Below are positions 14,255-45,100 of a stretch of 64,000 nt of DNA, in pieces. Both the position numbers and the translations under genes were made by a program. Numbering within the stretch: the stretch's first letter is position 1; each line of letters begins with the position of its first letter. Origin of the DNA: an uncultured Lachnospiraceae bacterium (lineage in GTDB: Bacteria > Bacillota > Clostridia > Lachnospirales > Lachnospiraceae); the NCBI GenBank assembly GCA_947628225.1, contig CANQYY010000006.1:22378-86377 (forward strand), read 5' to 3'. The notes beneath the pieces are model-generated. The model was not told the origin of the DNA and searched no databases. It saw only the letters and a list, made by a program, of their open reading frames with translations.

Positions 14255-17200
14255 TTATTTCAAATTGCTGCATCCGGCAAAGACATCCGTCTGCTTTACT
14301 TTCGATGAAATCGGCGACGCATAGGTCAGACCGGTACAGTTTTTATAAGTATATTCCATGATTTCCACCGTGGAAGGCACTTCCGGCGCTAACACAAGAG
14401 AGGTACAGCCGTAATATGTCATTGTCATTCTTGTTACACCTGCCGGAATCACCGCAGGAACTTCCTGCAACGCCGTACAATCGCTAAACGTATTGGTCAG
14501 CCCCGTTAAAGCATCCGGCAGAACCGGCGGCATCAAAAGACCCTTGCAGCCGCTGAACGTCCAGTCCATATTGGTAACTCCTGCCGGAATTTCCGGCGCC
14601 GCCTGCAGCGCGGATGCATTTTTAAAGGCGGCATACAGGCTTGTCACGGAAGCCGGTATCTCCGGCGCCATCTGCAGGGAAGTACAATTTTCAAAAGTGT
14701 TCCGCAGTTCGGTAATGCCGGAAGGCAGACCGCCGCTGATAGAAACCAGTTTCTCACAGCCTTTGAAGGCCGCGCACATATCTGTGACCGTATCCGGTAT
14801 ATCGGAAACCTCCTCTAAGGATTTGCAGCCATAGAATAAATAAGCGATTTTATCAATCTTCATGCCGCTCCCAAAACGTACGCCTTTGATGTCGCATTTT
14901 TTTCCGTTGGAAGTAAATACCCCGGTAGTTTCCCGTCCCTCACATTCCTTGAACGCCACCGTATAGCTCGTTTTGACCCCGTCTGCCGCAACATCCATCA
15001 CAGCCGGTATCGTAATATATTCTTTCTGCCCCTGATAATAACGGAGGGTAATTATCTTATTTACGCCATCCAGCGTATAGCTCCAATCAGAGGGTATTGT
15101 TTCCTTATATTCAGCCTGTTCGCCGCATTTGCTGCAGGTTCCGGAGGCATCCCGGGTGTGTCCGGCAGCGGGAACAGCTGACTGCTCCTCCGTCTGGCAG
15201 ACGCCGCAGGTCCGCTTCTTTTTTCCTCCCTCCGTGCAGGCAGCTTCCGCCACATCACTCCAGCCGCCCCACTGATGTCCCTTAGCCGGAATTACCTGAA
15301 TATCAGACAAATATCCGCAGGTCTGGCAGTGCTTCGACTTACTTCCCGGCAGGGTACAGGTCGGTTCCTCATCTGTCACATACTCTTCCGTATAGGAATG
15401 TCCGGTGGCGGGAATCGGCTCCTCCTTCCAATGTTCACAGTTTTCCCGCTGGCAATCGTAATGCATCAGGCCTTCTTCCGTACAGGATGCCGGCTTCTTG
15501 ATTTCCGCTACGCTATAATCATGTCCCAGCGGTTTTATGGAACCACTATTTTTAACGGTTTCGCATCGGGAGCAGTGAATGGACTGCATTCCGTTATCCG
15601 TACAGGTAGGCTGCTTGTCAACCGTAAAATCTTTCTCCCAGTCATGTCCCTTTGCCTTTATGATGCCTTTCTTTTCAAACTGGCAGGTACGACAGGTATA
15701 TACAATTTTACCGGTCCCCGCGCAGGTCGCTTCTCTTACGACTTTGCCCTCGTCAAAATCATGCCCGGTTTCTGCGATCCCTACGGAAGTTCCCTGTTTC
15801 CCGCAACGCTTACAGTACTTGGATTTTTTCCCCTTCGTCGTACAGCCTGCCGGCTTATCAATAACAAAATCTCCCCAGTCGTGCTTCAGGGCATGGAGCA
15901 CCTCGGTTTCCTCCAGCCCGCAGCGCTGGCAGGTATAGGTCTTTTTCCCGGAGCCAGTACAGGTGGCTTCCTTTGTAATCTTTCCGGCATCCATATCATG
16001 TCCCAGCGGCTCCAGCTTCACATACATCTTTTTCCCGCAGATCAGACACTCGCTGGTGCGGGTGCCGCCTGCCGTACAGGTGGACGGCGTCGTTATCTCG
16101 CCATAATTATAAGTATGCCCGGCGGCTTCTGTCGCTTCCGTTTTTGTCCCTTTACAGCCATCTACCGTACAGTGATAGGTTATCCGCCCTTTCGTTGTAC
16201 AGCCCGGCTCTGTTGTCACCTCTCCAGCATCCCAGCTATGTCCGTTTGCCGCAACCGTTTCCGTTTTCTGTGCCTCGCACACACTACAGGTATATTGCTT
16301 TTTCCCTTTGGAAGTGCAGGTTGGCTCCTGAATCAGGGTGCCGTTTTCCCAGACATGCCCCGCCGCCGGGGTGTCCTCCTCCCGGGTTGCCATACATGCC
16401 CGGCAGGTATAAAGCATCTTTCCCTGCGCTTCACAGGTCGGCTTCCTGGTTTCTCTTCCTGCATCCCAACTGTGTCCTGTCGGCGGAACCTCCTCGGTCT
16501 TAGTCTTACCGCATTTTGTACAAGTATAGGTTTTAACGCCGTCGGTCACACAGCCCGGCAGCGTCGTAATACTGCCGGCATTCCAGGTATGGTCGCAGGC
16601 GCCGTACTTTACCGTCAGGCGGCAGACGGCATAAATCGATCCACAACTCGCCTTAATATCCGCCGTCGTCCCGGGAGGCGTATCTTCCGTTACATAAACG
16701 CTCCCGTTAGAATATACATTAATACCGCCCTGAAAATCACAGGAATATGTAATCGTTCCTGTGGCAGTTGCCGGCATAAGGGAGGCGGTCATCTGATACC
16801 TCTCCCCCGGCTCCAGTTCCAGTGTCTTCTGCATGATAATCGCCGTAGGCGCCTCCACGGTCTGAATCGCCGAAGGCGCTGTGACTGCCGCTATCGGACT
16901 GAAGGCAATCAACGCCCCCTTAGAAAATAGCGGCGCGGTTTCCTTTTCCTTTACGGTAATTCTTACCTTCGCCTTTACTGCTTTTTTCGCCTTAGAGCGG
17001 AGAGTAAGGACGGCGCTCCCCTTGTTTTTTGCCGTGACTACTCCTTTTTTGGTAACGGATACCACGCTCTTTTTCGACGAGGAAAAAGATACTTTTTTAT
17101 TTTTTGCCTTTTTTGGTTTTACGGTATAAGTTATTTTATAGGAATCTCCTACGGTCAGGGTTTTCTTTTTGGCTGCTACCGTTATTTTTTTCGGCTTTAC

Positions 17201-17377: not shown

Positions 17378-18355
17378 TTATGCCAGCGCCGCCGTCACTA
17401 TCGCCATGGAATAGACCTCTTCGGCATTACATCCGCGGGACAGATCATTGATCGGCGCATTCAGCCCCAGCATGATCGGCCCGTATGCCTCAAAATTACC
17501 AAGGCGCTGTGCAATCTTGTAACCAATGTTTCCTGCGCTGATATCCGGGAAAATAAAGGTATTGACTGTACCTGCCACTTCATTGCCCGGGCATTTCGTA
17601 CGCGCCACGCGGGGCGACACCGCTGCATCGAACTGGACTTCCCCGATAATGGGAAGCTCCGGCGCGATTTTTTTCGTTTTTTCTGCCGCATTTCTCATTT
17701 TATCTACGTCCTCGCCGCTGCCGGAGCCAAAAGTAGAGTAGCTTAAAAAGCCGACTCTCGGGTCGATGCCGAAGGTTTTGGCACATTCCGCGCAGTCAAT
17801 GGCAATTTCCACAAGTTCATCTTCATTCGGTTTAATGTTAATGGCGCAGTCCCCCATCGCCAATACCGAGTTCCCGCCGGTGGCAGACTCACGGACAAGG
17901 ATAAAGCAGGACGCCACCATTTTCTTTCCCGGCTTTGTCTTTATGATCTGCAGGGCCGGGCGCACCGTATCGGCTGTGGAATATGTCGCGCCGCCTAACA
18001 GGGCGTCCGCTTTTCCCATTTTTACCAGCATCGTTCCAAAATAGTTGGCATGCTGGCAGGTTTCCTTCGCCTGCGAAAGGGTCATCCCCTTTGCCTTACG
18101 GATTTCATACAGGCACTCCGCCATCTCATCTATTCCTTCATATTCCATCGGATCTATGATCTCGGCGCCGCGGATATTAAAACCGGACTCCTCTGCCGCC
18201 TTGGCAATTTCCTCTTTATTCCCAATAAGAATCGGCGCTAAAAAGGTGCTGGCAAGCAGACGGGAAGATGCTTCCAGAATACGGGGGTCGCTTCCCTCCG
18301 TAAATACTATTTTCTTGGGGCTTTTCTTTAAAATGTCAATTAACTTTCCAAACAT
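17378..18355 (-). CDS. pta: Phosphate acetyltransferase
   Basis: IVFTEGSDPRIL, STADTVRPALQII, GEVQFDAA, GNIGYKIAQR, NDLSRGC. Confidence 0.95.
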   Translation of the reverse strand: MFGKLIDILKKSPKKIVFTEGSDPRILEASSRLLASTFLAPILIGNKEEIAKAAEESGFNIRGAEIIDPMEYEGIDEMAECLYEIRKAKGMTLSQAKETCQHANYFGTMLVKMGKADALLGGATYSTADTVRPALQIIKTKPGKKMVASCFILVRESATGGNSVLAMGDCAINIKPNEDELVEIAIDCAECAKTFGIDPRVGFLSYSTFGSGSGEDVDKMRNAAEKTKKIAPELPIIGEVQFDAAVSPRVARTKCPGNEVAGTVNTFIFPDISAGNIGYKIAQRLGNFEAYGPIMLGLNAPINDLSRGCNAEEVYSMAIVTAALA

Positions 18356-18441: not shown

Positions 18442-20172
18442 CTATTCAAATTGGAGTTCGTAAAGCTTTTTGTATATCCCGTCTTCCTCCATCAGCTTAT
18501 CATGGCTTCCGCTTTCTTCAATCCCGTTTTCCGTGAGCACTAATATCGTTTCCGCATTCCGTATTGTGGAGAGGCGGTGGGCGATCACAAAGGTGGTCCT
18601 GTTTTTCGCCAGTACCTCTAAAGATTCCTGCACCACCTTTTCGCTCTCATTATCCAACGCCGAAGTAGCCTCATCAAAAATTAAGATTTCCGGATTTTTC
18701 AAAAAAACTCTGGCAATCGATATTCGCTGCTTCTGTCCGCCGGAAAGTTTTACTCCCCTCTGTCCGATATCGGTTTCATAGCCATCGGGCAGCGACATAA
18801 TAAACTCGTGGGCATTGGCGCTTTTTGCCGCTTCGATTACTTCCTCCCTGGTTGCCTCCGGCCTGCCGTAGCGGATATTGTCATAGATCGTGCCCACAAA
18901 AAGATAGACTTCCTGCTGTACAATTCCGATATGGCTTCTCAGGCTCTTCAACCGGATATTCCGGATGTCGATGCCGTCGATGCGGATGCAGCCTCCGGTC
19001 ACATCATAAAATCGGGGAATCAGGCTGCACAGCGTACTCTTTCCCGCGCCGGAGCTTCCCACCAGCGCCATATAAGAACCCGCTTTGACAGAGAGATTGA
19101 CATGATTCAGCACCTTCTGGGCATTTTCCTCATACCGGAAACTGACATTTTCAAAATCAATGTCCCCCTTTACCTTATCGATCTTACATGCCCCGGGGGA
19201 ATCCTTAATATCCGGCTGTATATTCAAAATTTCCATAAAACGTTCAAAACCGGTGTAGCCGTTCTGAAACTGCTCCGTAAAATCAATGAGGGTTTTTACC
19301 GGCTCCGTAAAAATATTGATATATAACAAAAACGTGATTAAATCCGTTACCGATACGATACCTCTGGTAATAAAGATCGCTCCCGATATTAATACGACAA
19401 TCTGGATCAGGGTGGTAAAGGCGCCCAGTCCTGCCTGGTATCCGCCCATATAGAGATAGCTGTCCTTTTTGGCGCTGAGAAAACCATCGTTTCCCTGTTT
19501 AAATTTCCTTTTTTCGATTTCCTCATTGGCAAAGGATTTTACCACCCGGATGCCGGAAAGGTTATCCTCTATCTGCGCGTTGATCTCAGCGATCTGTACC
19601 CGGTTTTTCTTAAATGCCCGTTTCATCTTCCGGTTAAAATAATAAGCATAGGCAAACATAAACGGAATAAGGGCAAAGGCAGCCAGCGCCAGATACGGGC
19701 TGATGACAAACAATATCACAAAGGCGCCGATTATTTTTATCAGGGAGATCACAAGGTTTTCGGGCCCATGGTGCAAAAGCTCCGTAATATCAAATAAATC
19801 CGAGGTAATCCTTGACATAAGCTGTCCTACCTTCTGTTCGTCATAAAAAGAAAATGACAGCTTCTGGTAGTGGGCAAAAATTTCCGCCCTCATGTCATAT
19901 TCCATTTTGGCTCCCATAACGTGCCCGTAATTTGAAATAAAAAACTTGCAGTAGCATTCCACCGCTACCAAGCCAATCATCAGCGCCCCCAGAATAAGAA
20001 TGCTGTGTAACGCCTCCTCCGGCGGCCGTTTGATAACATTGGCGGTAATATACCGGACGAGAATCGGAATGACTAACGTAGTCCCGGATGCCAGCAGGGC
20101 AAAAAACATGTCCGCTATAAACACGTTCAGATAGGGTTTATAATAGCTTACCATCTTTTTTAAATTCTTCAC
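18442..20172 (-). CDS. ABC exporter, fused permease/ATPase
   Basis: TM domain, GSSGAGKST, LSGGQKQR, IFDEATSALD; GTG start. Confidence 0.95.
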   Translation of the reverse strand: MKNLKKMVSYYKPYLNVFIADMFFALLASGTTLVIPILVRYITANVIKRPPEEALHSILILGALMIGLVAVECYCKFFISNYGHVMGAKMEYDMRAEIFAHYQKLSFSFYDEQKVGQLMSRITSDLFDITELLHHGPENLVISLIKIIGAFVILFVISPYLALAAFALIPFMFAYAYYFNRKMKRAFKKNRVQIAEINAQIEDNLSGIRVVKSFANEEIEKRKFKQGNDGFLSAKKDSYLYMGGYQAGLGAFTTLIQIVVLISGAIFITRGIVSVTDLITFLLYINIFTEPVKTLIDFTEQFQNGYTGFERFMEILNIQPDIKDSPGACKIDKVKGDIDFENVSFRYEENAQKVLNHVNLSVKAGSYMALVGSSGAGKSTLCSLIPRFYDVTGGCIRIDGIDIRNIRLKSLRSHIGIVQQEVYLFVGTIYDNIRYGRPEATREEVIEAAKSANAHEFIMSLPDGYETDIGQRGVKLSGGQKQRISIARVFLKNPEILIFDEATSALDNESEKVVQESLEVLAKNRTTFVIAHRLSTIRNAETILVLTENGIEESGSHDKLMEEDGIYKKLYELQFE

Positions 20173-32826: not shown

Positions 32827-33023
32827 TTTTTCTTCCTTTCTCATAATGCCTGTCCGCCTTGCCAGACATACCGAGCGGCTTTCAGGTATACTTTAAAGTA
32901 TATATCGGCAGCATGCAGAGTTTCCACAAGACTACCTTTTCTCATCATATTTATTTTTCTATAAAACTCTATCACTTCCAAAAAACTTTTCTTCTATCAC
33001 TCATTATTCCTCTTTTCGATAAA

Positions 33024-33059
33024 AGAATCTGCTTCAGCAGCAAGCGAAAAGCAGATTCT
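33024..33059 (-). terminator. Terminator closing the island operon
   Basis: agaatctgctt...aagcagattct, 11-bp stem, with U-tract on the minus strand. Confidence 0.65.
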
Positions 33060-33094
33060 GTATGCAAAATGAGGTATTTCCCAGCAATTTTACG

Positions 33095-33445
33095 TCAGCG
33101 TTTCAATCTGCCATATGTTGCAATTGCTACGATTGCCAACAGATACACTGGCACAATAAATTTTAGCATAACCTGGTATACCATAATAAAAAAATCCATG
33201 TTAATAATCCCACCCTTATTCCAAGTGGCAGAGATATAAAACGGAATTTTCAACAGGAGCAATACAACCGCTGCAGCCAAAAGCAACAGAACTTCCAACC
33301 CTATAATCATAAAAATATATTTTTTATATCCTAATTTTTCTATATTGTGTTTTGTTCCTACTATGAAAAGCACAGGTATTATGCATCCAGACAAAATAAT
33401 TCCATAAATTGCTATTGTAATAATTCCTGCAAATATATTCTCCAT
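33095..33445 (-). CDS. Small 3-TM membrane protein (possible immunity factor)
   Basis: MENIFAG start with aggaagg RBS; three hydrophobic segments. Confidence 0.65.
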   Translation of the reverse strand: MENIFAGIITIAIYGIILSGCIIPVLFIVGTKHNIEKLGYKKYIFMIIGLEVLLLLAAAVVLLLLKIPFYISATWNKGGIINMDFFIMVYQVMLKFIVPVYLLAIVAIATYGRLKR

Positions 33446-33495
33446 CACTATTTCCTTCCTCCTTACAACAATTTCAGTTAAATAACTTAGCAAAC

Positions 33496-34467
33496 CTATT
33501 TCGACGAATGGTAAATATCTATTGTTGAAGTTTCACTTGAGCGAAGTATATCCCGCGGTGTAATTCCCGGTTCATTTAAAACACCTGTTGTTTCTAAATC
33601 CTTTCCCTGATTCTTATATGCTGCCCAAACTAATTCTGAACAATACCAATCCGGCTCGTTTTTTCCATAATCCTTACGTAAATCCAAGTTATATTTTTTA
33701 TCTAATTGTGAGATGCAAAAAGTCACGCTTGCTTTTTTCGCCTCATTATTTGCAATTGGCCTCAACAACGTAACTCCTCCTTCATCAGCTCGCGTATCAT
33801 CCAGCACCCCTCTCTTGACCCCATATGCGGGAGTGGCTTCGATAATCCTTATATAATAACCGCTGTCCTCATAAAACTTACCTTCTACAATTCCAACATG
33901 TCCACTAATACCTTTACCACCATTTTTCTCGTAAAAAATATCTCCCCTTTTAGCCTTTGATAATAAATAATATTTTGAATACTTACACTTTGAAGGTCTT
34001 CTTGTTCCAGTGTTATAATAATAACCAGATCTGCCATCTCCACCACTACTCATAATTCCATCGGAATTCTGTGGTATAGAGAAATCGGCTCCAGAAGACA
34101 TCTGTGGTTTTTCTAAATAGGATTTTATATCCACATCCCTACCCTGTAATATAGTTTCCTCGTATTCATCCCATGAAAGATTGACTGCATATCCTTTTTT
34201 TTCATATGTTGTGACCAGTTTCCTATAGTCTTGTTCCATAGTGACATATTGGAGAAGTTCCTCAGAGTTTCCATTTGTAACATCAGATGGGGTTAGCGCA
34301 CTATAATCAATCTGTGTAAATCCTTCATTTCCAATATGACTTTCCCTTTTTACAGCAGCTGATACTTCCTGAGTATAATACATGCCTACAATTTCATAAC
34401 TCAAAAAATATATTATTGTTACAAACCCAATCATCTTTTTAATGCTTAAACAATTTCTTCCCTTCAT
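33496..34467 (-). CDS. Secreted permuted NlpC/P60 (YiiX/YebB/YycO-like) papain-fold amidase
   Basis: Signal-like N-terminus (EVSA); RGDIF...GHVGIV precedes WYCSELVWAAY, the permuted His-before-Cys order. Confidence 0.85.
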   Translation of the reverse strand: MKGRNCLSIKKMIGFVTIIYFLSYEIVGMYYTQEVSAAVKRESHIGNEGFTQIDYSALTPSDVTNGNSEELLQYVTMEQDYRKLVTTYEKKGYAVNLSWDEYEETILQGRDVDIKSYLEKPQMSSGADFSIPQNSDGIMSSGGDGRSGYYYNTGTRRPSKCKYSKYYLLSKAKRGDIFYEKNGGKGISGHVGIVEGKFYEDSGYYIRIIEATPAYGVKRGVLDDTRADEGGVTLLRPIANNEAKKASVTFCISQLDKKYNLDLRKDYGKNEPDWYCSELVWAAYKNQGKDLETTGVLNEPGITPRDILRSSETSTIDIYHSSK

Positions 34468-34602
34468 TTACTAAATCCTCCTGTCATTCATTATATTATC
34501 AAAACGCCTCGTTAATTTTCCATCTGTACTACTATGAGAGTTTTTACAAATAACCATAATACATCAGTTGATAACCCCCACGAGATAACAAAACTTTTAT
34601 TA

Positions 34603-35103
34603 TCAAGTTTCTTTCCGGTACTCAACAACATACCACCTGATATATCCATCAAACCCTTCGACATGCTTATTACATAATGCTTTAATCACTTTATCCGGTT
34701 CAATCCACATCTCTGTATTATGGTTATATTGTGTTATCCGAAACAGGTTTTTCAGTTTGTCAATATCTGTTACACAAAACTCTGCCTTATCCTGGCATCC
34801 GCATCCAGCCTCCTTTTCATCCCAATGTCCCCATATGTACTTACCTTGTTCAAGGCTTTTTTTCCATTGCAGATATATATATTCCTTCTTCTCAAAGTAG
34901 TAATATTTCACAAAAGTCCATACAATATGTTCATCAAAAAATAGAGTCTGAAGCATCTCCGGAAATTTTCCCTGTTTCTCTGCCATATCCAATTCCATTA
35001 TTAATTCCGGTCTATGTTTCAGTAATAAATCAATTTTCACTGCTTTTTCCAAGCCATAATTGCTACATACCTTTTTTAGTATATTCATAACAATCCCCTC
35101 CAT
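34603..35103 (-). CDS. Hypothetical protein
   Basis: 166-aa ORF co-oriented and tightly packed in the island operon; no recognisable motif. Confidence 0.6.
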   Translation of the reverse strand: MEGIVMNILKKVCSNYGLEKAVKIDLLLKHRPELIMELDMAEKQGKFPEMLQTLFFDEHIVWTFVKYYYFEKKEYIYLQWKKSLEQGKYIWGHWDEKEAGCGCQDKAEFCVTDIDKLKNLFRITQYNHNTEMWIEPDKVIKALCNKHVEGFDGYIRWYVVEYRKET

Positions 35104-35108
35104 AGAGT

Positions 35109-36065
35109 TTAAGAAAAAATGATTTTCGAAAGAATATTTTGCTCTTTCTCCAATAGCTGAAGCGCTTTGTCATACATTCGAACTGCCGTTTTAGAGGATG
35201 GTTGCATAGCATACCTTATCCAATTATTTAAAATTGAATGAAAGCCATTTCCTATTTCAATATATTCATCTATATCAACAGGCGTAAATTCAATTTCCCC
35301 TTTTTCTCCCAGATATTTTAACCGAGCCAGCATTAGTTTCTTATGCTCATAAGCAAGATATACCGATTGACGGGGAATATATTCCCTTTTCTTCCCCCAC
35401 CGTTTTATATCCTCAAAAAAATCTTCCAAAGCGTGAATACCCTCCAAAGAGTCTGCCGCAAGATAAGCGACAATGCCGTTTCTGCTTGCCTTTGTTGATT
35501 CGGAATATACAAAATCCCTATTACGCTGATATGAATTAAGTCCCACATGCCCATCTTCATCCCTGTTTTTATCGGATACCACAGCATTTAGATATTGTTC
35601 AAATGTCACATAAAAATATTTCCATTCGTAATTTTTTGTATAACCCAGGCATCCAAACATTCCTAATTCTTCATCCACTGAGGTCAAAAAATACTCATGC
35701 ATATAATCTGTCCTTTGGTATGCTCTGGATTCCGGTATATAAAATTCATTCCACATACCATATATATACCAACCGTCACATATACGTTCTATTATAAAAT
35801 CCAGCATTCTCTTTTTACTGGAAAGGGAATCAAAAGGAATGCTGTGGAATGCCTTTACAAAAATACCATCGCTCGTAAAAAAATCATAATAATCATAGTT
35901 TAAAAATTTATCCTTCGGATTATTCTGACAATAATAAATCTGACAAAACTTCTGTTGAATCCAATTTTTAAATTCTCTTGTACTTTCCAGCATTGACAAC
36001 GGATAGGCGTGGTGTACATATGTTTTAACATAAGGTTCATACATCTTCAATTGCTTTTTTCTCAT
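35109..36065 (-). CDS. BtrH-like/papain-fold protein lacking an obvious catalytic Cys
   Basis: TYVHHAYPLSML, WNEFYIP...YMHEYFLTSVDE...GY pattern plus a helical C-terminal domain. Confidence 0.55.
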   Translation of the reverse strand: MRKKQLKMYEPYVKTYVHHAYPLSMLESTREFKNWIQQKFCQIYYCQNNPKDKFLNYDYYDFFTSDGIFVKAFHSIPFDSLSSKKRMLDFIIERICDGWYIYGMWNEFYIPESRAYQRTDYMHEYFLTSVDEELGMFGCLGYTKNYEWKYFYVTFEQYLNAVVSDKNRDEDGHVGLNSYQRNRDFVYSESTKASRNGIVAYLAADSLEGIHALEDFFEDIKRWGKKREYIPRQSVYLAYEHKKLMLARLKYLGEKGEIEFTPVDIDEYIEIGNGFHSILNNWIRYAMQPSSKTAVRMYDKALQLLEKEQNILSKIIFS

Positions 36066-37725
36066 TAATTTTCTCCTTCACATATTGAATCAAATCTAAA
36101 ATAGTAGTATATTTTTCACATAAGATGTACGCATCATCAAATTCAATTTTATACTTTTCCTCAATTTCCATAATGATACTTATAAAAATAATAGATGTAA
36201 TGCCAATTTCTTCTAACATTGATTCACGATTTACTTTTCTATTCTCCACATCCACATTTCTTCTGACAATTTTCAATACTTCTCTTTCCACCTTGTCTTT
36301 ATATATAAATTTTTTCAATTTTTCGAACAACATCCAAAATCCTCTTCTCTGAAAATATGCATCCAATGTTTCTTTTCGATTTATCTTTCCATTATCCGAT
36401 AACTTAAACTGCTTCCATCTAATAAATTGATTGGGTATCATGTACCACGGCAAAGCCTTTTTCAAATATATGATTATATCTCTTGGGGCTATCTTTTTCC
36501 TTCTATTATATATTACCTTGATTACATCGTGATGAACAAATGCAATTGCACACTTTATCCCTGGATATGTAAGCATCTGCGTTTCAATTTCTTCCAATTC
36601 TATTCTGTATCCATTCCATTTAACCTGATTATCTTGTCGCCCTAAGAAAAAAAGTCTTCCGCATCCATCAAAACGCGCCAAATCTCCTGTATGATACAGT
36701 ATGATTTCCGTATTATTTTGAAATATCTTTTCAAATGCCTTTTTTGTCTTTTCCTTATCATCCAAATAGCCGGCAGAAACCCCGGCTCCAAACAAACAAA
36801 TCTCCCCTATTTCACCAATTTTCGCTTTTTTTCCTGTTTCATCCAACAGAATCAGATTCGTGTTTTCTAATGTGTCTTCTATTGAAACACATTTCTTCTT
36901 TGTTAAGTCAGTAATCGTTGACCAAATTGTAGCTTCAGAGGGACCATAGGCATTAAAAATCTGTGCCTTACATTTACTTTTAACACGAGCCAACAAATCA
37001 TCCGGGAATTTTTCTCCACCAACCAGTAAAGTACGAATATTTTTTGCAAACGCAAACTGTGCATCACATTTCTCCAACAATAAAAGTTGGGAAGGCGTAA
37101 TTTGTAAAATATCCACTCGGTTTTCTCTTAACATTCTGCATAGTGCATATGGGTTTTTCCTTTCATCTTTACTACTAAGTAAAATTGTCATTCCCTCAAA
37201 AAGTGGAACAAGCGTTTCCAGCAAAAAAATGTCAAAGGCTTCATATGTTATACAAGCAATAATTCCCTCCATGCATAACCGCTTACTTATCGCCCTCATA
37301 AAGCTTATTAAATTATCACGGCTTATGGGAATTATCTTAGGTTTACCCGTACTACCTGACGTAGAGATACAATAAGCCACATTGCAAAAATCCATGGGAG
37401 GATTTGATAAAATCCAGTTATTCAATAAACATAATCCTGAACCGGCATCTGTTTTTATAATGTAGTGAATTGACAGACGCTGACAAAGATTTTCTCTCCT
37501 GCCATCTGGCATTTCTAATGGAATAACCATAAAAGGAATTCCTTTCTCAAATAATACCCCTAACAATATTGGCAATATTTCTGTACGTTCCGCCATAACA
37601 CCTAACAAACCAATATCTTCAACGTCATCTAAGAGTTTTTCCACCTTCTTTTCAATTTTTCTAATATATGTATAATCGAAGACCTGTCCAAGAAATAATA
37701 TCTTCGCTCTTTCGGAAATATGCAT
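36037..37725 (-). CDS. Stand-alone amino-acid adenylation domain fused to a C-terminal carrier (A-T didomain)
   Basis: STSGSTGKPK (A3), FDIF (A4), NAYGPSEAT (A5), YHTGDL (A7), GRQDNQVKWNGYRIELEEIE (A8), NGKINR (A10); carrier motif GITSIIFISIIMEIEE. Confidence 0.9.
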   Translation of the reverse strand: MHISERAKILFLGQVFDYTYIRKIEKKVEKLLDDVEDIGLLGVMAERTEILPILLGVLFEKGIPFMVIPLEMPDGRRENLCQRLSIHYIIKTDAGSGLCLLNNWILSNPPMDFCNVAYCISTSGSTGKPKIIPISRDNLISFMRAISKRLCMEGIIACITYEAFDIFLLETLVPLFEGMTILLSSKDERKNPYALCRMLRENRVDILQITPSQLLLLEKCDAQFAFAKNIRTLLVGGEKFPDDLLARVKSKCKAQIFNAYGPSEATIWSTITDLTKKKCVSIEDTLENTNLILLDETGKKAKIGEIGEICLFGAGVSAGYLDDKEKTKKAFEKIFQNNTEIILYHTGDLARFDGCGRLFFLGRQDNQVKWNGYRIELEEIETQMLTYPGIKCAIAFVHHDVIKVIYNRRKKIAPRDIIIYLKKALPWYMIPNQFIRWKQFKLSDNGKINRKETLDAYFQRRGFWMLFEKLKKFIYKDKVEREVLKIVRRNVDVENRKVNRESMLEEIGITSIIFISIIMEIEEKYKIEFDDAYILCEKYTTILDLIQYVKEKINEKKAIEDV

Positions 37726-38694
37726 TTACTTATCCACCTTTAAACATTTCATCAGTACCTTTTGTTCTTCCATATGCAATTTTTGCATACAAATTATAAT
37801 CTCCAAGATTTTCTCCCTTTTATTCTGCACTGAGTATTTAACTGCCCGCAGCCAAAGTTCATTCCATTTTTTTATTACCGCATAATATAGTTCTCTCACA
37901 TCAACTGGGAAATATATATGATTCTGTAATATATAAAACAGCATTTCTCTGCTTTTCAAAAAACCCATAATTTTTATTGAATAAAACGTTTCCTGTATCA
38001 GGGCAGAAAAATATTGATTTTGTTCAATTTGGTGCTGCAATTCTTTTAAAAAGCAAGTTACCGCCTTATAACCCCGACAAGAATTTCCTGTCAAATATTC
38101 CATTAGCATTTTCTTTAATAAATCCAATTTCATTTCTTCTTCCATAACCAGTTTCGTTTCCTTTGCTCCCTCTGGTTTCTTAATAAGAAAATATTCATAA
38201 CCCATTTTTTTCCACGCTTTAAGCAAATTACTTTTTGAGAAAGAACACTGATATACTTTCCGGGTTCCAAATGTTATATAACCATCACTAATATAATACT
38301 CTGTTGAATCTAAACCAAGAATATTGATATAGTGCGGAGCGCCCACTGATTTAACAAATACTGGATTATAAGTTAGCAGCTGTGACCACGCACATATACT
38401 TACCAATGCTTCTTCTTTAATAAAACATTCCAGACTTCTCTTTGCTTTTCTACTTTTTCCTAATCGCTCTCTTACATAGGATATATTCATTTTATCAAGA
38501 TACGCAAATCCACTATGTATTAAACCAGTTGATATGTTATAAGATGCCGGATGATACTCATGGGCAAAACCATTCCCATACAAAAAGATTTCTTCTGTCA
38601 AATCTTTCCCATAAATATGATGTAGTGAGTTATTAATACAAGACAAGATACACTCATTCCCCGAAATTGTATGGTAATCCTGATTAATCAGCAT
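37726..38694 (-). CDS. BtrH-family papain-like protein with intact Cys-His-Asp triad
   Basis: NECILSCINN (Cys15), APHYINILGLD (His), YYISDGY (Asp); EEIFLYG segment typical of the BtrH N-terminal domain. Confidence 0.75.
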   Translation of the reverse strand: MLINQDYHTISGNECILSCINNSLHHIYGKDLTEEIFLYGNGFAHEYHPASYNISTGLIHSGFAYLDKMNISYVRERLGKSRKAKRSLECFIKEEALVSICAWSQLLTYNPVFVKSVGAPHYINILGLDSTEYYISDGYITFGTRKVYQCSFSKSNLLKAWKKMGYEYFLIKKPEGAKETKLVMEEEMKLDLLKKMLMEYLTGNSCRGYKAVTCFLKELQHQIEQNQYFSALIQETFYSIKIMGFLKSREMLFYILQNHIYFPVDVRELYYAVIKKWNELWLRAVKYSVQNKREKILEIIICMQKLHMEEQKVLMKCLKVDK

Positions 38695-38729
38695 AGAAAC
38701 TTCTCCTCCATCATTGTAGCAACATACTA

Positions 38730-38924
38730 TTATAATAAAATATATACATATAATCCCATCTTATCCTTGGCCGCATACCTGTTTGTGCTATCCTTATTGT
38801 ATACCTTAGGCTCCAGCATAAAACATGTTGCAGTCATTTCAGATGTAACTATATCCGTAAAACTTTCTGGCAAAACAACTCTTTTATCGATTATTAGATC
38901 TTTCACTTCTTTCCCCTCAAGCAC
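38730..38924 (-). CDS. Small hypothetical ORF (64 aa)
   Basis: GTG start with gaggaa upstream; fills the gap between the lipoprotein and BtrH-like genes. Confidence 0.35.
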   Translation of the reverse strand: MLEGKEVKDLIIDKRVVLPESFTDIVTSEMTATCFMLEPKVYNKDSTNRYAAKDKMGLYVYILL

Positions 38925-39017
38925 TTGTTATATTCCTCTTTCGCCACTTAAAAAATATCTCTTGTCCTCCTCAAAAATAGAACAAGTATTTTTTTACATT
39001 ACATTTTTCCATATTTC

Positions 39018-40034
39018 TCACGTAATCGTTATCCTGAACAGTGAAATTTCACTCTCGTTCTGCACGACACAATAATATGTGTCTTCATCATACTGCACTG
39101 TGTAGATTACATCTTCATACTCATCAAAAATTGATACCAAACCGCTTTCTCCCACAATTTGTTTTACAGAATCCCCTTCTACCCGAAAAATGCCTTTTGA
39201 TGATATCATGTAGGCTGAACCATCCACGGTTTTTCCAATATTCCATAAATACAGGCTCTCTTTCTCTGCAAACTCATAATCAAACGTCACCATTTTCTGC
39301 GGTATATTTTCCATGAAATTTCTGAATTGTATCGCACATGTTGTATCATTGAATTTGTAAGGGTATACAAACTGATTCTCCAAAACACAGAGGCTGTATA
39401 GTGATATACTGGTATCTATGCTAGCTGGTACCTTTGTCTTCAGTGTTTCTCCATTCCGGAAATCAATGCACCGGATCTCTGTTTTCGTGTCCTCTTCCAC
39501 TGCAATTAAAAATTTCCCATTGTCCATGAGGAGAAAGGACGTTACCTCTTCCTGTGCGGAAATCCATTTGTTCTCACTATCCAGCTTTGTCAACTGACCG
39601 TCTACACTAATCTGGTATATGGTTCGTTTGGCATTTTCCTTATATTCCTCTCCGAGAAAATATATATTTCCTCCGGCATCCTGCTGATAATTGCCAATAA
39701 AATTTACATTTGCTTTTTTTAACTGGCTATTTCCGGCAAATTCCTCCTGCGTCCATGTTTCATCCGTCATGTCGTAAGTATACACGATATACTGATAAAT
39801 CTCCCTGGACTTCCGCCCCAGAAAGACGGAATAATATCCCTCCTGAAAGTAGTCAAAGCTGTTCATGTCCGCCGAACCTATTTTCCATTTTCCAAATGTA
39901 AAATCAATCTGCTCGACTGCACACTCCGGATTTTGTTTTAGTGTTTCCTCAGTTTTTTGTTCCTCCTGCCCACAAGCATTCAACAGAAACATACTTAATA
40001 ACAGCATTGCAAAAAAAATTCTCTTTTTTTTCAT
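39018..40034 (-). CDS. Lipoprotein, beta-rich (propeller-like), function unknown
   Basis: MKKKRIFFAMLLLSMFLLNAC lipobox; gggag RBS before ATG at 40034. Confidence 0.8.
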   Translation of the reverse strand: MKKKRIFFAMLLLSMFLLNACGQEEQKTEETLKQNPECAVEQIDFTFGKWKIGSADMNSFDYFQEGYYSVFLGRKSREIYQYIVYTYDMTDETWTQEEFAGNSQLKKANVNFIGNYQQDAGGNIYFLGEEYKENAKRTIYQISVDGQLTKLDSENKWISAQEEVTSFLLMDNGKFLIAVEEDTKTEIRCIDFRNGETLKTKVPASIDTSISLYSLCVLENQFVYPYKFNDTTCAIQFRNFMENIPQKMVTFDYEFAEKESLYLWNIGKTVDGSAYMISSKGIFRVEGDSVKQIVGESGLVSIFDEYEDVIYTVQYDEDTYYCVVQNESEISLFRITIT

Positions 40035-40066
40035 TGATTTCGTCTCCCATACAACTAATATTAAAG

Positions 40067-40486
40067 AATAAAGCAAATAACTACTAAAATTATAATTTAT
40101 GTATCGTATTACTTACAAAAATACTGCCCTTCAGCATCTAAATCAGATGCTTTTAAACCTGCTTTTAAAATATCATAATCCGCTGTACAAAGTTCTTTCT
40201 CTGAATAACCTCTTCTGCTATTAGTTTCTAATATCCTCTGATCTGACTTTCCTTTGTGTTTCCACAAAGTAACATACAAACTTGTATGCCAAAATGATGT
40301 CCGTGTCACACCCCAATATAAATTGTTTTTATGATTTACCCAAGCGTAACAAGACTGGTATGCCGCTCTTACCTCTTGATGTGACGATATCGTTCCAGAA
40401 AGAATCAGAATCAATGCTATCGCATAAATTTTTCTCTTCAGCTTCAACCATCTCCTTTTTTATTAATAATAGTTATTTGCTTTATT
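40067..40486. repeat. Perfect 17-bp inverted repeat pair flanking one gene
   Basis: aataaagcaaataacta at 40067-40083 and tagttatttgctttatt at 40470-40486. Confidence 0.9.
40109..40447 (-). CDS. Small secreted protein (112 aa, about 84 aa mature, 3 Cys)
   Basis: TTG start after aaaggag; basic N-region, hydrophobic core, EVRA|A cleavage site. Confidence 0.75.
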   Translation of the reverse strand: MKLKRKIYAIALILILSGTISSHQEVRAAYQSCYAWVNHKNNLYWGVTRTSFWHTSLYVTLWKHKGKSDQRILETNSRRGYSEKELCTADYDILKAGLKASDLDAEGQYFCK

Positions 40487-40533
40487 TACATTGCGACATC
40501 TATTCTCCGCTTAACTGACCAGCAAGACATTAA

Positions 40534-41775
40534 TTACACCTCACGCTTCTCTTTTACCTCACTCACAAAATACTTTAGTTTTCCATTTTCTTCATTTGGA
40601 AAAAATTCCTGATAAAAATTAAATTGGAAATAACTTTTAATTATTTCTTCCTGTTCTATATTATCCATAAATAATTTCTTTATCTGTTCCTGCACATTTT
40701 CATTAATAACAAGATTGACAGCAAAATATTCATAATCTTTTTGTACTATTTGAAATTGACAAACAGGATAGTCAAGCTGTTGGTTGATATTTTCTATTGC
40801 TCTCACAAAAATATAAGGAGTAATTTTAACCCCGGCTTTTGTATATATCCAATCATTATCACGCCCGGAAGTAAGGGTTATGCATATTCCTTCGACCCCA
40901 CACTGGCATTTTCTTTTATATCGAATTCCAACATCCCCGATTTTATAACGAATTAGCGGCATAGCTTTATTTTGAAGTGAAGTAACACAGATTGTTCCCT
41001 CTCTACCATCTGGCAGTACGTTATTTCCCGAGTCAAGAATCTCTACATGTACATTACTCTCCATGCAATGAAGCGTTCCATATGGACATTCATATGCTAT
41101 AGAGTTAACCTCATTTGCACCATATTGATTTGCTATTTTTGTATTGGGAAAAGCTTTCTGTATTTTCATTCTGGTAGAAGGCCATAACATCTCGCCACTC
41201 AATTCTATATATTGTAATGACGAAATTTTCTTTACGTTTTCCTCTTCTACTATTTCTGACAGTAACACAGCCAAGCTTGGCTGTAATAACATCCATTTAG
41301 GGGAAAAATCTACAATTTCATTATAAATATCCAGTAATTTCCCCCAATTCAAATTATTCTTACAAAAACCAATTCGCCTCTCAAATACTTCTTTTTCCTT
41401 ATTGTTTTTGCCATTCCCGCGTGAAGTATAAAAATAGGCATATCTGTCATCTGGCTCAATATTATAAAATTTTTTACGAAGATACCATAACTGCAATAGA
41501 GAATATATACATTCCGCCCTATCCCAAAATATTTCCATGCATTCCCCTGTAGAGCCTGATGTATAATATTCCAAAAGTTGTCCCCGCATTTGTTTAATAA
41601 TATATGCCGGAGCCAACAATTGACCAATATTGCGAATTGCAGCCTGTTTTGTCAAAATTGGTACTTGTTTAAAATCTATTTGTTCCAAATCCATAGTACA
41701 ATTTTGCGCTAGTTCCATATAATATGGAACATTTTTATACGCATATTGTACCATCTCCAGAACTTCCTTTTTCAT
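40534..41775 (-). CDS. Phenylacetate-CoA ligase (PaaK/CapK)-like adenylate-forming enzyme
   Basis: YAYKNVPYY, TSGSTG, QYGANE...IAYEC, RYKIGDVG, GRDND. Confidence 0.85.
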   Translation of the reverse strand: MKKEVLEMVQYAYKNVPYYMELAQNCTMDLEQIDFKQVPILTKQAAIRNIGQLLAPAYIIKQMRGQLLEYYTSGSTGECMEIFWDRAECIYSLLQLWYLRKKFYNIEPDDRYAYFYTSRGNGKNNKEKEVFERRIGFCKNNLNWGKLLDIYNEIVDFSPKWMLLQPSLAVLLSEIVEEENVKKISSLQYIELSGEMLWPSTRMKIQKAFPNTKIANQYGANEVNSIAYECPYGTLHCMESNVHVEILDSGNNVLPDGREGTICVTSLQNKAMPLIRYKIGDVGIRYKRKCQCGVEGICITLTSGRDNDWIYTKAGVKITPYIFVRAIENINQQLDYPVCQFQIVQKDYEYFAVNLVINENVQEQIKKLFMDNIEQEEIIKSYFQFNFYQEFFPNEENGKLKYFVSEVKEKREV

Positions 41776-42004
41776 TTACAGTCACCTTCTCCAAATATAT
41801 AGCCAGTTTTCCAAATGAATTTAAATTAGTAACAAATTCTGTTATATCTGGTATTTCAAATCCCAAACGCTCTTCCAGCATACTGATTATATTAATAATA
41901 GCAACAGAGTCTAAACCGAACTCATCAATCATATCTGTTTCATCCGTTATATCGTCTGTACATTCACCCAGAGTTTCCAGACATTCCTTGATTATTTCCC
42001 GCAT
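41735..42004 (-). CDS. Acyl carrier protein
   Basis: EFGLDSVAIINIISMLEE phosphopantetheine motif; acidic. Confidence 0.9.
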   Translation of the reverse strand: MREIIKECLETLGECTDDITDETDMIDEFGLDSVAIINIISMLEERLGFEIPDITEFVTNLNSFGKLAIYLEKVTVNEKGSSGDGTICV

Positions 42005-43412
42005 TTATATCTCCTTCGCAATACTTTAGCATTGTAGTATAACAAATTTTTCCATTTTTCTTTCGAAACAAATCTAAATTTGTCTGTATCCATATAAAAT
42101 CCGTTTTCAATACCCCTATTTCTTTAATCATATTGTGCAATACTCCCTTATTCAGTTCTTCTTCATATACACAATATATTTTTTTATTATCTGAAACGCA
42201 ATAAACTTCTCTTTCGCTAAACTCCGATATGGTTTTCTGTACATACTCCAAATCTATACGCAATCCATATATCTTCGCATATCTTCCTTTTCTTCCCAGC
42301 AAGTAAAAAATATCGTCCTCATCAAAATACCCAACGTCTCCTGTATTCAATATCCCGTGATTCTCATCCGGTTTTTTTAAATCTTCTCCTGAGTTTGCAT
42401 ATCCTAATGAAACATTCTCTCCCATATATACAATCTCGCCTTTTGTATAGGGCATAAATATTTTTTGGCCATTATTATCATGCAAAGACAATTTCCCATG
42501 AGGAATAGCCTGACCGATACTTCCCTGCTTCAATTCAAAAAGATTTGGATCCAGATAAGCCATTCTTGCTGTCGCCTCTGTCTGTCCATACATAACATAA
42601 AATCTCATGTTGCGGTTTTTCACAATCCTTGAAAAGTATTGCCATGTTTCTTTCTGCATACCTCCCCCTGCCTGTGTCATAACCTCCCAATATGACAATT
42701 CATATTTTTCAAATGGATTTACCTTTCGTATCATATCATAAGTGTATGGAACGCCTGAAACGGAAGTGACTTTAAATTTCTCCATGTTTTCCCAAAAATC
42801 CGGCTGTATTACCATCTTATTATTTATCACAATGGAAGCTCCCGCAAACAAGTAAGTGTTAATAATTGATAATCCAAATGAATAATTCATAGGTAGCGTC
42901 GTTATTGTTCTATGACTACTTCGAATCTGAAGATACTTCACAATATCTCTAGTATTAGCCGCCAGATTTCGATAACTAATTCTAACGAATTTACACGATC
43001 CGGTAGTCCCCGATGTTGGTAACAATAACGCTAGCTCATCTGATAATTTCCATGTTCTGCGATTTATGCTGCGAAATAGTTTATATTCCTTGTTTTGCCA
43101 CAAAATTTCGTAGTCATCCACTCGTCTATCCGCTGAACTCCACAAATATTCCGGCCTATATTTTTCTATCAAGTTAAATAAATCAATTTGCGGAATTTCA
43201 TTAGGCAACATGGCAACCACTATATGATTTTTAATTGATGAAAGATATGCAACCAGACTTTCAATACTATTATCGGCAAGAACAAATAATAGTGAGCGAT
43301 GAGAGCTTATCCTTTTGTAAAATCTTTTTTCTAACTCAGTAAGCCGTTGATATGTAACAGGTTCACCATCCTCTCTATATATCGCAACTGTTTGATTATC
43401 TGCAAATCTCAT
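41964..43412 (-). CDS. Acyl-CoA synthetase/AMP-dependent acyl ligase
   Basis: LPTSGTTG, YGQTEATARM, LNTGDVG, GRKGRYAKIYGLRIDL, NGKI. Confidence 0.9.
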   Translation of the reverse strand: MRFADNQTVAIYREDGEPVTYQRLTELEKRFYKRISSHRSLLFVLADNSIESLVAYLSSIKNHIVVAMLPNEIPQIDLFNLIEKYRPEYLWSSADRRVDDYEILWQNKEYKLFRSINRRTWKLSDELALLLPTSGTTGSCKFVRISYRNLAANTRDIVKYLQIRSSHRTITTLPMNYSFGLSIINTYLFAGASIVINNKMVIQPDFWENMEKFKVTSVSGVPYTYDMIRKVNPFEKYELSYWEVMTQAGGGMQKETWQYFSRIVKNRNMRFYVMYGQTEATARMAYLDPNLFELKQGSIGQAIPHGKLSLHDNNGQKIFMPYTKGEIVYMGENVSLGYANSGEDLKKPDENHGILNTGDVGYFDEDDIFYLLGRKGRYAKIYGLRIDLEYVQKTISEFSEREVYCVSDNKKIYCVYEEELNKGVLHNMIKEIGVLKTDFIWIQTNLDLFRKKNGKICYTTMLKYCEGDINAGNNQGMSGNSG

Positions 43413-43615
43413 TGTTGTATAAATCCGTTACTGTTTCAATTATCTAATCTCATCCTATATGGTATATTATAAAATCTTTTTCTTTTTCCTACAGTAACTT
43501 TTTCCTTTCTTATTATTTTTTATTTTTCTGTAATAATTTTTTTAAAAATTAATGAATTTTTGATTTATAATACAAATTTTAACATAATATTCCAATTACT
43601 TCAATGCTTTATTTC

Positions 43616-45100
43616 TTGAATTTCCACAATTTTATTCACAGACCCTCATTTTTATGGTTCTCTTTATAAACAACTTCCAAAAAATGACCAAAATATAAGG
43701 AATCTCATTCCTTTTTGATGTAAAATTAAGCTACCAAACAAAAATCTCACTAAACAAAAAGAAAGGGGATTCCTTATATCTGATTTTACATCAAATACTT
43801 ACACTTTGAAACGAAAAATTTTAACTTTTACTAATACCTTTCAAAACCTGAAAGGAAATTCACTGCTGACATTACCTACGGTATGTTAGCTTCCGGAAGC
43901 TGTCTGCTAACTGACGTTTGCGACCAGCTTCACGAAACTTCCCAAAAAATAAATGTTGTAAACCGCTTATCCCGGCATCTTGAAAAAGGTACTCCTGCCT
44001 CTGCAATTTCTGCTTATCTGCAGCAGATGAAAAAATGGATGCCTGCTGAACCTGTGATTTACATTGATGACAGTGATATTGTTAAGCCGGACGGCTATAA
44101 ATTTAAAGCCCTCGGAATTGTCAGGGACAGCTCCGAAAGTACTTCCACGAAAAATGTTTACAAAAAAGACTACCATGTAACGGAATCCTGTGTCCTTACT
44201 TCCGGTAACCATCCCGTTAGCATTTTTTCTAAAATACACTCTTCTCAGGAAAAAGATTATAAGTCTGCAAATACCATTACCTTTCAAGCCATGGAGCAGG
44301 GAGCTGCTCTCTTTGGAAAAGCGACTTTTGCCATGAACAGAGGTTACGACGATAATAAGATGTTTCTGAAGCTGGATGACCTTAACCAGGATTACGTTAT
44401 CCGTTTGAAATCCAACCGCAAGCTTTTGTACCACAACAAATGGATAACGGCTGCAGAACCTCGTAACCGCAGAAAAGGCAAAATTAAAACAAATGTTTTT
44501 TACAAAGGCAAAGACCATCAAGCTTACATTTCCCATGTCAAAGTGCAGATTACTGCATCCAGAAAAGATATTTATCTGGTGCTTGTTTATGGCATTACCG
44601 AACACCTGATGAGGCTTGCAACCAATAAAGAAATCAAATCCAAAGATGATGTAATCCGGGTGGCAAGGACTTACTTCTCACGTTGGCGCATTGAAGAATA
44701 TTTCCGCTGCAAAAAGCAGATGTTCCAGTTTAAGAACTTTCGTGTGCGTAAGCTGAAATCAATGTCCTTAAGGTTTCCATCATAAAGGCGGCAGACCCTG
44801 TAAAGGAAAAAGTATCTTTCTTCTATTACCGGTTGGCAAAAGACATTTCGGGCATACTTTCTTATGCAAAAGAGGGCGTCAGGCTCTGGTTCTGGACAAA
44901 AGTCTGGCATACCGTCAACTATGCCTTAAGCTGGTCACTTAAACAGATAAATGAATAATTCTTCCAAAGTCCGGTTTCGGGGGGGACTTATTAAAGTGCC
45001 TCTATTCTCGGTACTGCTATTCTGAAGCTCTCAAAAAAGCGACAGATTGGTACTTTGAAAAGTTATATGCATTTTGGAATTGCATTTTGCGAAAACTCAA
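43616..45100 (+). mobile_element. Degenerate IS4-family insertion sequence (about 1.5 kb)
   Basis: Imperfect terminal IRs ttgaatttccaca (43616) and tgcgaaaactcaa (to 45100), 10/13 match; degenerate flanking repeats ctttatttc / atttattta. Confidence 0.75.
43777..44941 (+). pseudogene. IS4-family DDE transposase pseudogene
   Basis: YIDDSD and YFSRWRIEEYFRCKK motifs present. Expected ATG reads ATA, frameshifts near 43840 and 44760, and the second catalytic motif reads NRGYD instead of DRGYD. Confidence 0.88.

Follow-up and report, generated by a model that had tools for sequence, protein, structure and literature searches.

Background

In ribosomal RNA operons, the sequences flanking the 16S and the 23S rRNA pair with each other over a long range and the resulting stems are cut by RNase III or Mini-III. 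Long-distance interactions between 5' and 3' parts are also characteristic of type I toxin mRNAs, such as those of the hok/sok system, where they bring about fold-back inhibition, and of aapA1/IsoA1 in Helicobacter. For genes that share an operon, local hairpins, internal promoters or translation signals are the usual explanations of differential expression; intercistronic stem-loops or RNase III sites set it in the early mRNA of phage T7, in the puf operon and in the gapA operon. On the level of DNA, inverted repeats mark the ends of invertons, segments which are flipped by a recombinase, as in the Hin/Gin systems, the RecV switches of Clostridioides difficile and the invertible promoters of gut bacteria. 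Here we describe a 64,000 nt stretch of DNA from an uncultured Lachnospiraceae bacterium (contig CANQYY010000006.1 of assembly GCA_947628225.1; henceforth the window, meaning the whole stretch that was analysed), in which a perfect inverted repeat encloses a single gene for a small secreted protein. Our analysis suggests that this repeat acts as a long-range helix in the mRNA. That such structures are feasible in a translated message is known from Bacillus subtilis, in which intramolecular pairing over several hundred nt of translated mRNA forms in vivo and alters both decay and translation (PMC12697547).

The element shares features with all of these systems. As in the rRNA processing stems, complementary stretches of about 20 nt flank a unit within a longer transcript and pair over hundreds to thousands of nucleotides, the continuous sense-strand duplex being 20 bp long in the window and 19 bp (locus L109) or 15 bp (locus L102; about 22 bp with a bulge) in a distant relative. 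However, the enclosed unit is here a protein-coding open reading frame (ORF) with its ribosome binding site (RBS) inside a biosynthetic operon, ribosomes traverse the loop, and cleavage is what we infer. Type I toxin mRNAs, too, have a short ORF enclosed by a helix of its 5' and 3' flanks, on which stability and translation of the message depend, but each of them is a small transcript of its own that is matched by an antisense RNA, the product is a membrane-toxic peptide of 30–50 aa and the Shine-Dalgarno (SD) sequence is sequestered. We considered a type I toxin mRNA as an explanation and rejected it, since the locus encodes a 112-aa protein with a signal peptide inside an operon, conserved beside a lipoprotein gene, with the SD sequence outside the helix and no antisense RNA evident. 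Like the intercistronic stem-loops, the element would be an operon-internal structure that uncouples one cistron, and in one relative (L004) the equivalent spacer indeed contains a local hairpin of this type; the known cases are hairpins formed locally, whereas the strands described here flank an ORF on either side. With the invertons it has in common inverted repeats of 17–23 bp about 400 bp apart in a gut Firmicute, but there is no recombinase in the window, assemblies show one orientation, a whole gene rather than a promoter is enclosed, and it is the RNA pairing and not the DNA that is conserved. The pairing described for B. subtilis likewise spans several hundred nt of a translated Firmicute mRNA, but consists of 8-nt pyrimidine-rich elements which block the SD sequence, in contrast to a 20-bp helix beside it (PMC12697547).

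Results and discussion

Predicted sense-strand pairing around a single gene

The 17 nt at positions 40067–40083, AATAAAGCAAATAACTA, have their exact reverse complement at 40470–40486. The arms of this perfect 17-bp inverted repeat enclose exactly one gene, the ORF of the 112-aa secreted protein, together with its SD sequence (Table 1). Both observations had been made in the initial annotation of this DNA and are borne out by the sequence. Its placement of both arms in intergenic sequence also holds, with the start of the downstream lipoprotein gene set at the ATG at 40034. The right arm lies in the 86-nt spacer (40448–40533) between the stop codon of a CapK-like gene (40534) and the TTG start codon of the small gene (40447), the left arm in the 74-nt spacer (40035–40108) between the stop codon of the small gene (40109–40111) and the ATG mentioned. 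A TTG at 40076, proposed as lipoprotein start by the ORF finder, would overlap the arm; it was rejected because homology to the relatives begins at the ATG at 40034 and the SD sequence preceding it at 40043–40048. An extension of the DNA repeat to 29 nt at 83% was also discarded, as it is at the level of composition (7/12 matches in A/T-only sequence). No second copy of the arms exists within three mismatches across the 64-kb window, no repeat resembling them was found in the region of a nearby DDE transposase, and scanning against Rfam revealed no family matching at or near the arms. An intrinsic terminator was rejected as well, given a loop of about 380 nt and a terminator scan in which no terminator-like site was found in the two arm-holding spacers.

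On the sense (minus-strand) RNA the arms give a continuous helix of 20 bp, consisting of 19 Watson-Crick pairs and one U·G pair, with a predicted duplex energy of about -21.6 kcal/mol. The loop thereby closed, about 380 nt long (380–386), contains the RBS and all 112 codons of the ORF. The helix is present in both the minimum free energy (MFE) and the centroid folds, with pair probabilities of 0.68–0.97 in sequence contexts of 0.5–1.8 kb. Its 5' strand is located 48 nt past the CapK-like stop and 10–13 nt ahead of the SD sequence of the small gene, which thus lies outside the helix and is not sequestered. The 3' strand starts 22 nt past the stop codon of the small gene and ends 18 nt ahead of the SD sequence of the lipoprotein gene. 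The initiation signals of the small gene are weak, with a TTG start and an SD spacing of 4 nt.

The initial annotation had offered three readings of the repeat: an invertible DNA segment, a long-range stem in the mRNA, or the scar of an insertion. We favour the mRNA stem, because the pairing recurs around the orthologous gene of a relative at 39–45% protein identity, with a different sequence. Judged by these sequence comparisons and predicted folds, it is likely that the arms work through pairing of the sense-strand RNA.

A distant relative with a predicted helix of its own

Homologues of the small protein were detected in two other clusters only, P0002 by a word-indexed search and P0005 by a HMMER profile (1.84 billion representatives); none were found in GTDB genomes, JGI metagenomes, IMG/VR, plasmids and phages. 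The P0005/P0006 lineage is represented by the loci L099, L100 and L102–L110 and has a larger cluster than the window, including genes for an Orn/DAP-type decarboxylase, an ATP-grasp enzyme, two acyl carrier proteins (ACPs), an AMP ligase, the CapK-like enzyme, the small protein (here 115 aa), the lipoprotein, a BtrH_N-like protein and more. In both lineages the genes around the small gene stand in the order CapK-like, small gene, lipoprotein, BtrH-like. Compared with the window, the CapK-like protein is 45%, the small protein 44% and the lipoprotein 39% identical. In two of the loci (L099, 1915–2260; L100, 2160–2505) an indel of 1 nt splits the signal-peptide and the mature part of the small gene into different frames and the gene is called from an internal ATG (100 aa); the 115-aa ORF is intact in L102–L109.

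In L109 the small gene is bracketed by arms at 492–510 (AUAAAAGUGGUCACUGUGG) and 885–903 (UUACAGUGGCCAUUUUUAU). These form 19 continuous pairs on the sense RNA (15 Watson-Crick and four G·U) compared with six on the antisense strand, and none of 5000 shuffles of the flanks reached 19 pairs. The L102 variant has 15 continuous pairs, a value attained by 12 of 5000 shuffles, or about 22 pairs with a one-nucleotide bulge in the MFE fold; again the small gene ranks at the top of its contig, with 15 versus 12, among 28 genes. Pair probabilities amount to 0.87–1.0 for L109 and L102 in a context of 488 nt and to 0.78–0.90 for L102 with flanks of 400 nt. The geometry resembles that of the window: in both loci about 10 nt separate the end of the 5' strand from the SD sequence, the 3' strand begins 6–8 nt after the stop codon and ends 11 nt before the SD sequence of the lipoprotein gene, and the loop measures 374–382 nt. 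The genes are co-directional, the CapK-like stop in L102 being only 13 nt away from the start of the small gene, and in L109 a local hairpin of 7 bp, directly inside the helix, carries the SD sequence in its loop.

The inner 12–13 bp of the helix are unrelated between the window and the P0005/P0006 lineage, with the pairing kept; the outer helix sequence GUAAAUAAA(A)G is the only part common to both. Three internal positions of the helices depart from Watson-Crick pairing (two in L109, one in the window), and every one of them is a G·U pair in the sense RNA and thus A·C on the antisense strand. As DNA, the repeat of the P0005/P0006 lineage is poor (15/17–15/19). Pairing kept through sequence change and G·U pairs on the sense strand are what an mRNA stem predicts, as is a loss of the arms together with the small gene. 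The comparison of homologous loci that had been suggested in the initial annotation covers this last point too: pairing is kept in the L099/L102–L109 lineage, and both arms are gone together with the small gene in L101, a locus which is 78–80% identical to L102 at the nucleotide level in both flanking genes. In L101 (1000–1030) the CapK-like stop overlaps the lipoprotein start (ATGA). The 445 extra nt of L102 (9556–10000) hold the 5' strand, the SD sequence, the small ORF, the 3' strand and a new SD sequence for the lipoprotein gene; on the left the indel reaches about 2 nt beyond the extended helix, on the right, with that SD sequence included, about 20–25 nt past the 3' strand.

The P0002 lineage (L004–L013) encodes a small protein of 52% and a lipoprotein of 44% identity to those of the window. 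Here the lipoprotein gene also follows the small gene; upstream of the latter lie a 252-nt spacer and three unrelated genes. No bracketing complementarity was found in L004, where the longest helix has 10 pairs and 1384 of 5000 shuffles were as good. The spacer between the small gene and the lipoprotein gene contains instead a perfect local hairpin (5167–5216; 15 bp with a 20-nt loop, TAATGTCATTCAGTT...AACTGAATGACATTA), which stands 5 nt ahead of the lipoprotein SD sequence and is not a terminator, because it has no U tract. A weak promoter-like site suggests that the small gene of L004 probably has its own promoter. That a small gene with a long upstream spacer of its own should have a local hairpin in place of the helix is a further prediction of the mRNA stem. 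Among the remaining loci, L001–L003 are near-identical copies of the island (99.2–99.8%) with the same repeat and are therefore uninformative. A lone lipoprotein gene (77% identity) is present in L014–L018, where the SD sequence, downstream of the arm, is exactly the point from which homology to the window begins; in L014, from a related species, it is situated at 1906–2922 between spore-coat genes of the cotJ type and a GH31 glycosidase. In L111 and L112 (GTDB Eubacteriaceae) the CapK-like gene runs straight into the BtrH-like gene, and the small gene and the lipoprotein gene are both absent.

Chance level of gene-bracketing helices

Block-wise Markov shuffles, in which perfect inverted repeats of at least 17 nt at a start-to-start distance of 60–1500 were counted, led to an expectation of 0.014 such repeats per window. 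However, the window holds a second perfect 17-nt repeat, 17650–17666 (TGGGAAGCTCCGGCGCG) and 19045–19061 (CGCGCCGGAGCTTCCCA), inside two coding sequences, that of a phosphotransacetylase and that of an ABC transporter, where it falls on the Walker A motif; this repeat is apparently meaningless. Furthermore, about 14 distinct repeats of this kind occur in 1.31 Mb of real Lachnospiraceae DNA (L019–L098), about 50-fold more than predicted by shuffling. The shuffle null is therefore too generous to the finding, and the argument of the initial annotation that a perfect 17-mer in this position is unlikely to be random is weaker than it appeared; it is rescued by the replication in the relative. Three loci of the real DNA have even longer perfect inverted repeats (31–38 nt) in intergenic regions, 150–300 nt apart (L053, 15342–15730; L043, 4567–4825; L058, 3402–3637), of which the one in L053 lies between gatB and clpX.

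We therefore used a statistic matched to the claim that a gene is bracketed, namely the longest continuous sense-strand helix of Watson-Crick and G·U pairs between the 80 nt upstream of the start codon and the sequence downstream of the stop codon. RNAduplex energies had been dropped for this purpose, as they are noisy through unlimited interior loops (p about 0.01 for the window). Among 55 genes of the window, the small gene scores 20 and the runner-up 12, and none of 5000 shuffles of its own flanks reached 20. In related genomes, five of 1208 crudely called genes had a value of at least 15 and only one of at least 19. This single gene is gatB of L078 (13400–14827), with a continuous sense-strand helix of 22 nt (TGGATATAAGAGAAGTAAGCTT), which may be another ORF-bracketing mRNA helix or a chance occurrence. 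Taken alone, the bracketing helix of the window is unusual, yet a scan of many windows would yield some now and then.

A chance origin or a neutral by-product, for instance of AT-rich spacers or of a template-switch mutation, has to be considered. The spacers are indeed AT-rich, the window contains the meaningless second repeat, real DNA has the 50-fold excess over shuffles, and the P0002 lineage represented by L004 does without a bracketing repeat. We nevertheless hold this explanation to be improbable. In the relative, at 39–45% protein identity, a 19-bp helix unmatched in 5000 shuffles, and matched by about one in 1208 real genes, is found at the same relative places, the small gene is the top outlier of its contig in both lineages, and neutral spacers at such a divergence would lose their complementarity.

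Invertible segment or inserted cassette

By their length and spacing, perfect 17-bp inverted repeats flanking a segment are typical of invertons, and a recombinase encoded elsewhere could flip the 420-bp segment and thereby switch the small protein ON or OFF. A promoter-like site (TTGTAA-18-TATAAT, 40118–40089 on the minus strand) overlaps the stop codon of the small gene at one inner end and points outward, toward the lipoprotein gene; a transcript from there would begin within the 3' strand of the helix. A probable genuine inverton was found in a human-gut Lachnospiraceae metagenome-assembled genome (L030), where perfect 23-bp inverted repeats (15304–15326 / 15756–15778) are 430 bp apart beside a Resolvase/HTH_7 gene (15833–16435). 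For the locus studied here, an invertible segment is all the same very improbable. In agreement with the initial annotation, no invertase appears to be encoded in the window: no recombinase domain was found among its about 55 proteins or in the 21-kb locus L102, the sole mobility gene being a truncated DDE_Tnp_1. Contigs of seven out of eight rabbit-gut runs cross both arms in a single orientation and without strand-switch joints (39000–41500), and one orientation was also found in three ENA assemblies (representing 23 contigs) and in 10/10 loci of the P0005/P0006 lineage. Counted together, 11 assemblies of the island and 10 of the relative were examined, 21 in total. This test was made on assembled contigs and not on raw reads, which limits its power for a minority orientation, and the eighth run, X9, contributed fragments only outside the arms. 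A scan of JGI metagenomes with the 25-mer of the left junction gave no match, the organism not being in that collection. Finally, the promoter scan as a whole was not above shuffles (65 sites found, 52 expected), and every mismatch in the poor DNA repeat of the relative still pairs in the sense RNA.

The other DNA-level explanation regards the small gene as the passenger of a non-autonomous mobile cassette, with the arms as its terminal inverted repeats or as insertion scars. The 445-nt block of arm, SD sequence, small ORF, arm and SD sequence, present in L102 and missing in L101, fits this reading; L111 and L112 are without the small gene and the lipoprotein gene; and the outer ends of the arms, GTAAATAAA(A)G, are common to the lineages. 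Yet the outer flanks, ATTAAAG and TACATTG, show no target-site duplication, and the absence of any other arm copy within the window also speaks against it. The small protein and the lipoprotein diverge in step in three lineages (52/44% and 44/39% identity), which suggests an old gene pair with secondary losses in L101 and L014, and the gene order from CapK-like to BtrH-like is common to two lineages at about 40–45% identity. The indel between L101 and L102 may equally well be a deletion, as L101 is nested beside the gene-bearing lineage; moreover, the copy in L004 has no arms, and a model on the level of DNA leaves the sense-only G·U pairs unexplained. Hence a cassette is very unlikely, and of the insertion scar proposed in the initial annotation little more than the fitting indel stands.

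Proposed processing of the transcript

How could a helix of this kind act? We tentatively propose a role in processing and stability. The minus-strand array would be read as a single polycistronic mRNA, in which the sequence upstream of the RBS of the small gene pairs with the sequence downstream of its stop codon. The resulting helix of about two turns would have the length of a substrate for a double-strand endoribonuclease such as RNase III. Cleavage would release a monocistronic RNA of roughly 400 nt, whose paired ends would be shielded from 5' and 3' exonucleases, and would leave upstream and downstream operon fragments with unprotected ends. Such a step would serve to uncouple, at the post-transcriptional level, the output of the small secreted protein from that of the enzyme genes on either side. 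On this proposal we infer that both arms are co-transcribed, that the helix forms in vivo and is under selection, and that it leads to cleavage or stabilisation.

Several points weigh against a helix acting in the mRNA. A run search with the small-gene region showed that no RNA run contains it. The helix would be opened again and again by ribosomes on the enclosed ORF, and in L102 and L109 also by those on the tail of the CapK-like gene, which contains the 5' strand; the helix of the window is furthermore AU-rich. The window by itself cannot separate an element acting as DNA from one acting as RNA, because a perfect DNA repeat implies the same RNA helix. With the helix present in no more than two independent lineages and absent from a third (L004), formal covariation statistics are impossible. 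The alignment of the helices of the two lineages to each other was fitted to structure, so that counts of "compensatory" changes arise by construction, and the L102 variant includes one A·C mismatch. The statistical weight comes from each lineage's own significance and from the fact that the same orthologous gene is the top outlier in both contigs.

The same structural evidence would also support an RNA helix that acts on translation, either by bringing the stop codon beside the gene's own RBS, so that ribosomes re-initiate in a closed loop, or by insulating the initiation region from the folding of neighbouring cistrons. In both lineages the SD sequence is located 10–13 nt inside the 5' strand and the stop codon 6–22 nt inside the 3' strand, and the weak initiation signals in the window as well as the hairpin loop around the SD sequence of L109 would be in line with such a function. 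On the other hand, the distances of stop codon and SD sequence to the helix vary two- to three-fold between the lineages, and L004 manages with a local 3' hairpin alone. We consider a translational role rather unlikely and continue to prefer processing or stabilisation of the mRNA.

Genes, operon-like array and island

The features of the locus are compiled in Table 1. From upstream to downstream, the operon-like array encodes an AMP ligase, an ACP, the CapK-like ligase, the small protein, the lipoprotein, a 64-aa ORF and a BtrH_N-like protein, followed by a protein with adenylation and peptidyl carrier protein (PCP) domains, three unknown proteins (of 318, 161 and 45 aa, the last two being overlapping calls) and a C92/CHAP amidase. 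Judged by sequence, the enzymes of the cluster, together with the additions in L102, resemble the set for the 4-amino-2-hydroxybutyrate (AHBA) side chain of butirosin (BtrI/J/K/H). An AlphaFold model of the small protein, built from an alignment of two sequences, was unusable (pLDDT 44.7).

Table 1. Positions of the helix strands, signals and genes within the window
Feature	Position	Strand	Remarks
Helix 5' strand	40467..40486	-	AAUAAAGCAAAUAACUA (perfect 17, 40470-40486) + UUA
Helix 3' strand	40067..40086	-	UAG + UAGUUAUUUGCUUUAUU (perfect 17, 40067-40083)
SD sequence of small gene, AAGGAG	40452..40457	-	read directly; start codon backed by alignment to P0002 and the L102 protein
Small gene, 112 aa, TTG start, N-terminal signal-peptide-like segment	40109..40447	-	no family in Pfam search
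CapK-like adenylate-forming ligase (AMP-binding, CapK_C), upstream gene	40534..41775	-
Lipoprotein, 338 aa (signal peptide ending LLNAC), downstream gene, conserved partner of small gene	39018..40034	-
SD sequence of lipoprotein gene, GGGAGA	40043-40048	-
Operon-like array, 12 called co-directional genes	33496..43412	-	low-GC island

The array is part of an island at 33–44 kb (33000–44800) with 33–36% GC, compared with about 47% GC in the genome. It borders on the truncated DDE_Tnp_1 transposase (43883–44785), whose 300 aa compare with 382 aa in L002. Within the island, a perfect inverted repeat of 14 nt (34550–34563 / 34714–34727) has one arm in an intergenic spacer and the other inside a 166-aa ORF and is at chance level. 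The assignment to the uncultured Lachnospiraceae is borne out by housekeeping genes, an asparaginyl/aspartyl-type tRNA synthetase having its best GTDB match at 91%. All runs that cover the region well (X1–X8) are rabbit gut metagenomes. In run X1, two contigs break at 40561–40563 with a 3-nt overlap, each running into sequence absent from the window. At this point, among the final codons of the CapK-like gene and 75 nt from the right arm, there seems to be either a strain variant or an insertion that duplicated 3 bp.

Conclusion

It is possible, albeit doubtful, that the small gene represents an operon cistron built as an autonomous "panhandle" mRNA module, in which a flanking 20-bp helix allows excision and stabilisation, or translation in a closed loop. 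If this is a general principle, helices bracketing an ORF would constitute an overlooked class of operon-internal regulators; the 22-bp helix at gatB in L078 hints at others. If true, it would extend the logic of excision by a flanking stem from rRNA to an mRNA cistron, kept by compensatory change below 45% protein identity. In screens for invertons it should be borne in mind that about 400 bp flanked by a perfect inverted repeat in a gut Firmicute are not necessarily a DNA switch. Two arms of 20 nt also make a compact and easily mutated test case for long-range mRNA structure under ribosome traffic. The cluster itself combines enzymes like those for the butirosin side chain with an orphan secreted protein and a lipoprotein. 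If the panhandle reading is true, the small secreted protein would get a dosage independent of the ten co-transcribed enzyme and lipoprotein genes.

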